A stretch of 64,000 nt of DNA from Convolutriloba macropyga (GCF_964194025.1 NC_134469.1:27590001-27654000), one strand, 5' to 3'. Counted from the stretch's first letter, positions 56,978-59,593 are shown. The notes: generated by a model not told the origin, from the letters alone. Numbers and translations are program-made.

Positions 56978-57004
56978 AATATATATATATATATATATAT
57001 ATAT
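56978..57004. repeat. (TA)n microsatellite inside the Gypsy element
   Basis: tatatatatatatatatatatatatat. Confidence 0.9.
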
Positions 57005-57224
57005 TTAACAGCGTAGAGAATAACAATATGTGTAGACCATTCCAATTTACCCGCAGGCAAAATAGGAATACTTTGGTTATTCATTTGTTTCACAGCTTGA
57101 AACTTCAAATTTGCATGATCATTTACTATGCTTATACATGTTATTATTATTAAAACTGAAAAATCTCTTTTTAGAGACAAAAATTGAAAAATCTACATGC
57201 ACAGCGTTGTTCACCTTGTGATTA

Positions 57225-58727
57225 CCTATCGTTTAGTCTACAATATGCTTCATAGCATTCACTCAGAACTAAAGGGGTGAATAATTTCAACGCACAGTTA
57301 TACCTTATTGACACTGAATCATGCCTTTCTGCATGACTCAATGTACTTGGAAGCCATTTTGAAACAGCTATATCCATACTGGCTGTAACTGCTAAGCATT
57401 CAGCATACTCCAGTAGCAATGAGCGGTGCTCCATAGTTACATTTTCAGCACAAGTTGCCACACATTCACGCCAGGAGAATTTCCTTATATGTTTTATCCA
57501 CTTTCCTAAATAAAATATACATATAAGCTATAATATTACTGAGTTAGCAGCGCTTATTTTGTTTTAACCTTCTTCCTTAATCCGCTTTGCAATGTATTTG
57601 TCTTTGTTGGCTGGAAATCGGAAACTCCTTTTCTTTCGCTTGTTAGCACCGTCAACACCCGGCTTTCGCCCACGTTTTATTCTGGAACTATTACCACTAC
57701 TTGTTATCACAGACTGGCCAGACTGTGAAAACGCATACAAATGTTCTGTTAGACCACTTGTTACAATTTTGTTCCTCTTATCAAGTTCTTGGCTTATTTG
57801 AAGCGCGCCTTCCGTTCCAGCGTAATTTAAAAGTGACTTAAATCCTTCATGTCTAATTCCCGTTCCATAACTTCTAAGTGTACGCTCAGCCCTGTTGAAA
57901 TCTTTCATGTTACACGCTTCCCAACCCCACACAAATGAAACACCAACGCTTGAAGTCAATACCGCATGTGCACATAAACTGGGCTGGCACAAAATATAAT
58001 CAGGTTTTGGAATGTAATAGAAGACATTTTTCTGAATTAATGAACTTTCTGGACCATCAGAAATAAACGTTGAAAAGTCCTCAAATTTACGCATTCGTTT
58101 TTCAAAATTCACGGAATGGACACCAGGAGTACATATAAAATATAATTTCTCCCCAATTGGAGTTACTGAGATAGAATCTTTGCCTCCTGTTTCAATGTGA
58201 CCATCAGTCCACCAACAATTATATTGTATAATTGCATCGCATTTTGTTTCCTTTAAACAAGAAGGAATAGTGTATTTTACAAGATCTTTCATCGTCATAC
58301 TGTGGCACCATGAATCACTTTGCAAACTTTCCTCGGGACTTTCTAATTTTGAATACAGGCGAGATTCTCGACCACCGTTTATTAATCTTGATGGCAAATT
58401 AAAACATTTATTAACTTTCGTAAGAAAATTTGACTCGCTATTAACATTATTTAAGAAAGAGACAAATTCTGGATCAAGCTCAAATAACCGATGATTTGTA
58501 ATAGCAATAGGAGTTTTCACCCAATCGTTTTCCACATACTTCGAATATCCCGCAGATATTAATTATCTGGTAACTTGAAGCCAATCGGTAGACTGATTTA
58601 CGTTGACTATGGGTACAGGTTGCCAACCAATTGATTTTAGCTTATCTGGATTTCTAAATTCATTATTGAAATTTCGAAATCGTGTTTGAATGTCTTGCAA
58701 ATTTGATTTACAACGAGTAATTGCCAT
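57225..58727 (-). pseudogene. Antisense JmjC-domain 2OG/Fe(II) dioxygenase (KDM2/KDM7-like histone demethylase), apparently spliced, one premature stop
   Basis: ATG at 58727 in frame with ORF 57564-58535 (single TAA at 58565-58563); WTDGHIETGG..GEKLYF and QPSLCAHAVLT motifs; basic NLS; 63-nt GT-AG intron 57568-57506 joins in frame to exon 57505-57225. Confidence 0.85.
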
Positions 58728-58887
58728 TTGATCTTAAAAAAATAATTGCTATTAATAAAAAAAACCTTAGTTACTTTAATGAAAAATTCAGTTACTCAAA
58801 ACTTAATTTAGTAACAACATTTGACAATTAAGACAATTATTGCTGGAAATACACAGAGCCTAGCTAAGAAGCAGACAATTAGCCCGA

Positions 58888-59100
58888 TCACCCAGCTAAG
58901 ACAGTAGAGTCGCCGTCACCAACAGCAACAGACGCCTCACAAGGGTACTCCAATTTGTCAATTGAAAACACCACAACACCGTTTTCAATGAAGGACATAT
59001 TGCTTTGACAACACAGAACCTCCGTTTCTACGTCGTACTCAATTTTAGTACAACATAAAGTTGAACAAAAATATAAGGCGAACAGAAAGATGACATGCAT
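58888..59100 (-). CDS. Small antisense ORF with signal-peptide-like N-terminus
   Basis: MHVIFLFALYFCSTLCC hydrophobic start; tttttag acceptor just upstream of the ATG. Confidence 0.3.
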   Translation of the reverse strand: MHVIFLFALYFCSTLCCTKIEYDVETEVLCCQSNMSFIENGVVVFSIDKLEYPCEASVAVGDGDSTVLAG

Positions 59101-59593
59101 TATTAATCTAAAAAACCATTACCTGCTTGAGTTGTACAAGTTATTCATTACACATGAGCTGAAAATAAAAACAAAGTTATTTAGTACAAATTTCAACCGA
59201 CATTTTATCACTGCGCCTTGAGCAAAACTTACACCTTACTCATCTTATTCATGCCTATGAAAACTAAATAACACCTAGAGCGCAAAAACAAGGTTATACC
59301 TAGAGCATATAATTAAAATCAAATAAACAATTTTGAGGAAAAATTCCCAAATTACTTCATTGCTTCCTCTTTAGGCTTGTTTAGATTACAAGCAAAGTTT
59401 TACTTCCTCTGAGCTTTATTAGCCCTACAGGAGTAATTCCCTCATTGGGATGACTGCGTTCTGTTATTTTATAGTCTTGCAAACTTACTAATTTTAACTT
59501 CAACCTTGTTTATATTCTGTAGGCAGTTAAGATTGCTTTTGTCTGGCCAACTGAAGCAAAAACTTAAGTCCTGCTCTTATTTCAACTTTCAAA

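Follow-up and report, generated by a model that had tools for sequence, protein, structure and literature searches.

Introduction

Several Ty3/gypsy elements of plants carry conserved antisense open reading frames (ORFs) located between pol and the 3′ LTR, among them gene23 of Grande and the antisense ORFs of RIRE2 and Retand (TRP28) (PMC7264820, PMC11963269), and gene23 possesses its own upstream promoter (PMC7264820). One of these two papers is a review which calls for looking for spliced antisense transcripts, and the word "intron" is absent from the available text of both. Antisense RNAs with spliced and unspliced forms, beginning in the 3′ LTR, are also produced by deltaretroviruses (hbz of HTLV-1, aph of HTLV-2, HTLV-3 and HTLV-4, AS1 and AS2 of BLV; PMC10186651). 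In lentiviral vectors, the β-globin cassette is reversed so as to retain its introns during packaging (PMC7225380). Orchid Ty3/gypsy elements carry an AlkB-type m6A demethylase, a 2-oxoglutarate oxygenase, for which neither antisense orientation nor an intron is mentioned in the available text (PMC9289625). Env-bearing gypsy elements (errantiviruses) occur across animals (PMC13524379); "jmj", "demethylase" and "opposite" do not appear in the available text of that paper, supplements aside.

JmjC cargo of LTR elements was not found in the mostly open-access literature, supplements aside, including the available text of PMC5408684, PMC13524379, PMC6431247 and PMC13317346. Nor did this literature reveal a naturally occurring LTR family whose antisense gene holds conserved introns. 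Taken singly, extra antisense genes, spliced antisense RNAs of retroviruses and intron retention through reversed orientation are all known, but no natural LTR family uniting the three was found there.

Elements copied through RNA are expected to lose introns, and the antisense introns of deltaretroviruses overlie sense genes. We analysed a window of 64,000 nt from the genome of Convolutriloba macropyga (GCF_964194025.1 NC_134469.1:27590001-27654000; positions are counted from the first base of this stretch), in which a gypsy-type element bears a JmjC-like gene and a small gene on its antisense strand. We hold with good confidence that they form an antisense cassette of two genes, the JmjC-like one being interrupted by a probable intron that the orientation would shield. 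Like the plant antisense ORFs, the cassette is conserved, antisense and situated between pol and the 3′ LTR; unlike them, it combines putative conserved introns, two genes, a predicted JmjC fold and an env-like neighbour, and it sits in a genome having axonemal dyneins and myosins. In contrast to those of deltaretroviruses, its putative introns are short, non-coding and dedicated to that function, and one interrupts coding sequence, in an element of gypsy type; a second family, whose cassette adjoins the 3′ LTR, comes nearer to the hbz layout. The logic of intron retention would be that of the reversed β-globin vectors, which are engineered, whereas the present case is natural and kept across subfamilies 51–74% alike. 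As in the orchid elements, a 2-oxoglutarate oxygenase (predicted here) rides on a gypsy element, the orchid enzyme being of the AlkB and not the JmjC type.

Results

Structure of the element

The features of the element are as follows.

50052..62310: LTR retroelement, gypsy-type, 12.3 kb, housing the antisense cassette between pol and the env-like gene
50052..50407, plus strand: 5′ LTR, 350 of 356 bases identical to the 3′ LTR
50987..56132, plus strand: gag and pol (zinc knuckle, protease, RT, RNase H, integrase; by Pfam), several broken frames
57034..57072, minus (cargo) strand: hairpin, possible 3′ end signal
57155..57225, minus strand: donor/acceptor pair of the preliminary description, rejected (GT 14/17, AG 4/16)
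57222..57505, minus strand: JmjC-like gene, exon 2; constraint on about 57–65 codons, frame open over 93 in the window's copy
57506..57568, minus strand: very probable phase-1 GT-AG intron, 63 nt, placed by conservation
57569..58732, minus strand: JmjC-like gene, main exon, ATG at 58727, stop at codon 55 in the window's copy
58733..59122, minus strand: likely 5′ intron, 390 nt, from donor 59122 to the acceptor before the JmjC ATG, enclosing the small gene
58811..59107, minus strand: small gene with its own acceptor (59108/59107), 91–100 codons in open copies
59123..59158, minus strand: candidate non-coding 5′ exon, 36 nt, beginning at an acceptor-like site (59159/59158) or alternatively at a start site
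59555..61569, plus strand: env-like gene, head to head with the cassette, broken frames
61955..62310, plus strand: 3′ LTR, paired with the 5′ LTR

Two LTRs and the domain order gag, protease, RT, RNase H and integrase place the element in Ty3/gypsy, with Pfam matches to zf-CCHC, Asp_protease_2 (weak), RVT_1, RT_RNaseH, Integrase_H2C2 and rve. The env-like gene is a conserved sense ORF labelled by where it lies, by a basic site resembling a cleavage site and by a hydrophobic stretch at the C-terminus; it has no Pfam match below E 0.07, and the name is not backed by a family. The window's copy is damaged: pol and env are split over several frames, the JmjC-like ORF (387 codons) is interrupted by its early stop and the small ORF terminates after 70 codons. 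The flanks 50041 and 62311 are directly joined, as an empty-site form, in contigs from all four public runs (one study), so the insertion 50052–62310 is likely polymorphic. These runs are DNA-like, with contigs of up to 36 kb and the empty-site joint.

Relatives in the genome amount to at least 64 DNA matches and at least 127 protein matches. In each of the 20 stretches compared, the JmjC gene points away from both env and integrase, and the order pol-cassette-env is present, whole or in part, in 16 of them, the remaining four belonging to the second family. As described for antisense additional ORFs, the cassette is antisense, kept in most copies and placed between pol and the 3′ LTR. The cassette region also occurs in tandem repeats, with four JmjC matches spaced 4.1 kb on one contig (L079, contig C6), and another locus (L077) holds a row of several degraded JmjC copies.

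The JmjC-like protein

The JmjC-like protein has no Pfam match. A model built from a 67-sequence alignment reached a pLDDT of 91.7 (49.6 for the first model), and its best fold matches were PHF2, KDM7A and PHF8 (E 6e-9, TM ~0.4, 15% identity). The model displays the double-stranded β-helix fold and the His-x-Asp/Glu...His triad of JmjC oxygenases, and the protein is a predicted Fe(II)/2-oxoglutarate oxygenase. Searches of the PDB with the single protein and with a shallow profile gave nothing significant; profile hits to the PDB were weak (E 0.04–3.1), and nine out of nine fell in the KDM7/KDM2-type family. The likeness to PHF2, PHF8 and KDM7A (KDM7/KDM2) lies in the fold and in the His-x-Glu, Lys and distal His found at places matching KDM7-type enzymes; unlike them, the protein has no Pfam JmjC match and no PHD finger, carries Glu in place of Asp and deviates by an rmsd of >10 Å over the whole chain. 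A reader domain (PHD/CXXC) and clear sequence membership are lacking (profile E 0.04 at best), and by sequence the protein is JmjC-like, yet not a KDM7 member.

An unnamed JmjC-like family of 219 representatives was retrieved from public data at E 0.001 or better, while the host JmjC frames retrieved do not score with the element-family profile, which makes recent capture from the host unlikely. The position of the 63-nt intron falls beyond the core alignable with host KDM genes, and the introns may have arisen within the elements. Long unbroken frames do occur in the host (KDM5, a JMJD4-like gene, many tubulins and HSP70s).

A very probable intron in the JmjC-like gene

The preliminary description, drawn from the sequence of the window, had the JmjC-like frame continue past its stop codon by removal of 63 nt. 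The motifs are present as it placed them, GAAG/GTTAAA with the first intron base at 57568 and TTTAG/ with the first exon base at 57505. Scored with weight matrices built from host dynein introns only, and across the whole minus strand between 56800 and 59600, donor 57568 takes third place among 197 GT and the acceptor second among 176 AG, and their scores (6.7 and 9.0) both lie inside the host's 25–75% range. Host donors read GTT in 17 of 71 cases, and TTTAG is the commonest host acceptor. Host introns shorter than 100 nt are few (0/84 in dyneins and 2/22 in myosins, of 65 and 68 nt; 2/106 overall, with contig L094 excluded from the count), so that nearly every host intron sampled is longer than the 63-nt segment; its U2-type signals and length nevertheless fall within the host range, short size being rare there. 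Most host introns exceed 250 nt, with a median of 450 in dyneins. The excluded contig (G000 contig C3176) has 63% GC, against 35–39% in three other loci, and is probably another organism's.

Conservation was assessed in 41 copies of nine subfamilies, with 51–74% DNA identity between subfamilies, after exclusion of nine of 50 loci (four second-family copies, four duplicates and one with an unaligned 3′ end). GT is kept in 40/41 copies, AG in 40/41 and TTTAG in 39/41. The final acceptor list was limited to sites ending in TT(A/T)G with the exon-2 pattern, so the AG count is partly conditioned on the motif; the unconditioned counts are 27/28, when the acceptor was located by a conserved Trp alone (30 loci, two without this anchor), and 31/41, when the host-trained matrix alone selected the homologous acceptor. 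Copies and subfamilies are related, and none of these counts represents independent trials. Among the nine subfamily representatives, donor positions −1, +1 and +2 and acceptor positions −5 to −1 do not vary, unlike every position deeper in the intron. The final codon ahead of the cut reads GGT in 9/9 representatives, whereas 0/14 other fourfold columns keep their third base, and the GT is therefore not explained by conservation of Gly. A comparison among family copies, which the preliminary description had offered as a check, thus came out in its favour, the splice sites and the frame from 57505 onward being kept across the nine subfamilies.

The segment itself varies from 56 to 93 nt (8, 28 and 5 copies in the mod-3 classes 0, 1 and 2) and contains an in-frame stop in 41/41 copies, and its interior is 22% diverged between sublineages, comparable to synonymous sites (18–28%). 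Exact loss of the segment was seen in 0/41 copies, and no joint skipping 57506–57568 was present among the 15 contig joints listed from the four DNA runs, in which contigs show presence only. Motifs of this kind could be met by chance in AT-rich DNA, with 197 GT and 176 AG within 2.8 kb, and the acceptor at 57155 discussed below does resemble chance; at the 63-nt segment, both ends are invariant in 9/9 representatives against 0/14 control columns. Stop readthrough or frameshifting in place of splicing would have to cope with stops in every copy and lengths in all three mod-3 classes, for which no one rule suffices, and the variable length with fixed phase excludes both. Chance, readthrough and frameshifting are largely refuted by these patterns, and we give such readings hardly any credence. 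Selected GT and AG ends, a free interior with kept phase, and coding flanks in a joined frame are what a U2-type intron displays, and on this comparative evidence the segment 57568–57506 is very probably a spliceosomal intron.

Selection on exon 2 and the 3′ end of the gene

A further reading has the stop within the 63-nt segment terminate the gene and treats the conserved sites and downstream frame as remnants of past splicing or as sense-strand DNA or RNA signals. The JmjC fold does fit entirely within the unspliced frame, which gives a good model in the absence of exon 2, homologues outside the C. macropyga genome show no exon-2-like tail, the segment is short for the host, and the best sense-strand frame over exon 2 is stop-free in 23/41 copies. 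Against this, 45 codons are stop-free in the spliced frame in 32/41 copies, more than in any sense frame, while the other two frames of the cargo strand are open in one copy each. To measure selection, dN/dS was computed between sublineages within four subfamilies, from states that at least two copies have in common. The spliced frame of exon 2 gave 0.46 (P 0.003), and its 213 codon comparisons were free of stops; the two alternative frames gave 1.05 and 1.38 with 15 and 18 stops; exon 1 gave 0.17, so exon 2 is under weaker constraint. Since the sublineages are recent, selection on exon 2 would be ongoing or recent, which is at odds with a gene ending upstream, as are the phase 1 kept while length shifts by non-multiples of three and the independent intron of the second family, on which a start codon appears to depend. 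We regard termination inside the segment as quite improbable and retain the spliced gene.

Profiles built with one subfamily left out score the spliced frame best in 8/9 subfamilies; exon 2 of subfamily H is unlike that of the others. The extension announced in the preliminary description holds as a joined frame that is real and selected, but only about 57–65 exon-2 codons are constrained and not its whole length: the stretch past codon 65 gives a dN/dS of 1.79, open copies of subfamilies B–D stop 57–64 codons beyond the Trp, and several subfamily A copies have a common stop at codon 72, so the length of 93 codons is particular to the window's lineage. No protein joining the JmjC end and exon 2 was found with a profile of 32 natural exon-2 frames against 159 proteins, and a search of longer proteins for this combination also returned none, which is weak evidence.

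A second 3′ intron between 57225 and 57155 had also been proposed. Its motifs exist, and the donor AG/GTAATC (G at 57225) is kept in 14/17 copies of its own subfamily and in subfamily B, but it is absent in C and D and the acceptor AG is present in only 4/16 own-subfamily copies. The intron 57225–57156 was rejected for its non-conserved acceptor, which leaves the donor at 57225 without a conserved partner. Downstream, the outer stem of the hairpin at 57034–57072 is kept in subfamilies A–D, with z −2.3 on the cargo strand and −0.5 on the sense strand, and may serve as a 3′ end signal.

The 5′ part and the small gene

Donor 59122, which the preliminary description did not list, is the best of the region (rank 1/197). 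The acceptor-like AGs which it did report, before 58732, upstream of the JmjC ATG, and before 59158, were found in place, and another precedes 59107. The ATG at 59100, treated there as part of the same unit, opens a separate small gene, whose product has a signal-peptide-like start, a Cys pair and a hydrophobic end. This gene shows a dN/dS of 0.39 (P 8e-5); over 255 codon comparisons its frame contains no stop, while the other frames contain 14 and 18.

Just upstream of the small gene, a strong donor homologous to 59122, picked as the best donor within a 170-nt window, is kept in 38/40 copies. A T-rich AG follows it by 13–19 nt in 37/40 copies and an ATG by 18–28 nt in 38/40. A stretch of 15–17 nt is too short for an intron, so donor 59122 most simply pairs with acceptor 58733, skipping the small gene. 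The sites of this 5′ intron are kept in its own subfamily (GT 11/15, AG 14/15), both are present in seven subfamilies, and an acceptor precedes the JmjC ATG in those subfamilies where it could be located; in the window's copy the acceptor at 58733 is weak (rank 18/176). From the conservation of its sites, 59122–58733 is likely a 5′ intron.

The acceptor-like site 59159/59158 ranks 1/176 and retains AG in 11/13 own-subfamily copies. The candidate 5′ exon that it would open is mostly 46–49 nt in relatives and is not evident in subfamilies C and D; as a coding exon it was rejected, since its ATG shares the frame of the JmjC ORF in no subfamily but B. For acceptors 59159 and 59108, neither the 700 nt upstream nor the neighbourhood of the 3′ LTR yielded a conserved donor. 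The closest copies do contain a candidate hbz-like donor adjoining the 3′ LTR, which was rejected because the other subfamilies do not retain it. In several subfamilies a TATA-like word lies ~30 nt before donor 59122, with which almost no first exon would remain. No promoter was located at 59.3–59.5 kb, where the preliminary description had expected one.

These observations bear on a reading that accepts the 63-nt intron, starts transcription near 59122 and takes the acceptors before the ATGs as trans-splice sites of an operon-like two-gene transcript. It would account for an acceptor 3–9 nt before each ORF's ATG in most subfamilies, for the non-conserved upstream donor and for the TATA-like word, and host KDM5 has a similar acceptor 3 nt before its ATG. 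The conservation of the strong 59122 donor in nearly all copies speaks against it, as does the scarcity of such acceptors in the host, where an acceptor-like AG scoring at least 4 lies within 10 nt of the ATG in 4/20 starts and in 0/10 tubulins; in Rfam, no leader RNA family matched the element, the two snoRNA hits being at chance level. With no conserved upstream donor and the TATA-like word, trans-splicing stays a minor rival, improbable in our estimate, and cis-splicing from 59122 to 58733 is preferred.

A 12-nt word on the cargo strand at 59209–59220, some 98 nt upstream of donor 59122, is identical to the sense-strand purine-tract/LTR edge at 61945–61956, and a match of 9–12 nt to this word exists in 6/11 elements. 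It may represent a shared promoter motif, an inverted LTR relic or long-range RNA pairing.

A second element family

A second env-bearing family (L062 2799–9900 with L108; L064 with L109), whose RT is 58% identical to that of the first, carries the cassette antisense between env and the 3′ LTR. Its small ORF scores 17 bits with the first family's profile, against ≤9.7 in 500 shuffles. A phase-2 GT-AG segment of 71 nt (three copies) or 69 nt (one copy), with diverged interiors, links a similar first exon of 19–20 codons to the JmjC exon, and the start codon of the JmjC gene appears dependent on this putative intron. The evidence is weaker than for the 63-nt intron, since only two second-family versions were compared. 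No homologue of the first family's 3′ intron was found in the second family's JmjC gene. Both versions have a donor-like site one base past the JmjC stop codon (L062 5145; L064 reverse strand 5501), for which no matching acceptor was established. Three small sense ORFs lie between env and the JmjC gene, and about ten near-identical JmjC protein matches suggest a recent spread of this family.

Discussion

The arrangement suggests that a separate minus-strand transcript would be made from the cassette and then spliced, with 57568–57506 very likely removed and 59122–58733 likely so. In the genomic RNA, which reads the opposite strand, the intron segments would appear as CT...AC, which the spliceosome cannot remove, and reverse transcription would copy them intact. 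By analogy with vector practice, this is the likely reason why the introns are kept through copying. A single transcript could give two proteins by splice choice: joining donor 59122 to acceptor 58733 would skip the small gene and yield the JmjC-like protein, whereas keeping that intron, or using acceptor 59108, would yield the small membrane protein. We rate such a dual output as a possibility of slightly less than even standing. That the JmjC-like protein acts against host silencing is a guess. The broadest proposal, an env-bearing gypsy clade running an alternatively spliced antisense unit with an anti-silencing JmjC enzyme and element-born introns, is speculative and appears unlikely as a whole.

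Nine diverged subfamilies and a second family that keep short putative introns in a coding gene would be a natural counterpart of the gene-therapy vector trick and offer a system in which the gain and persistence of introns in retroelements can be put to the test. If the introns are element-born and lie, as they appear to, at different positions in the two families, the antisense strand would let a retroelement both gain and keep spliceosomal introns. The unnamed JmjC-like family is a candidate accessory enzyme of retroelements, and annotation by ORFs only truncates cargo genes of this kind.

Elsewhere in the window, 16218–22239 is a tandem duplication with a period of ~3.16 kb and copies 97–100% alike, and 48340–48700 on the plus strand holds a broken frame which we take to resemble an RNA-recognition motif.
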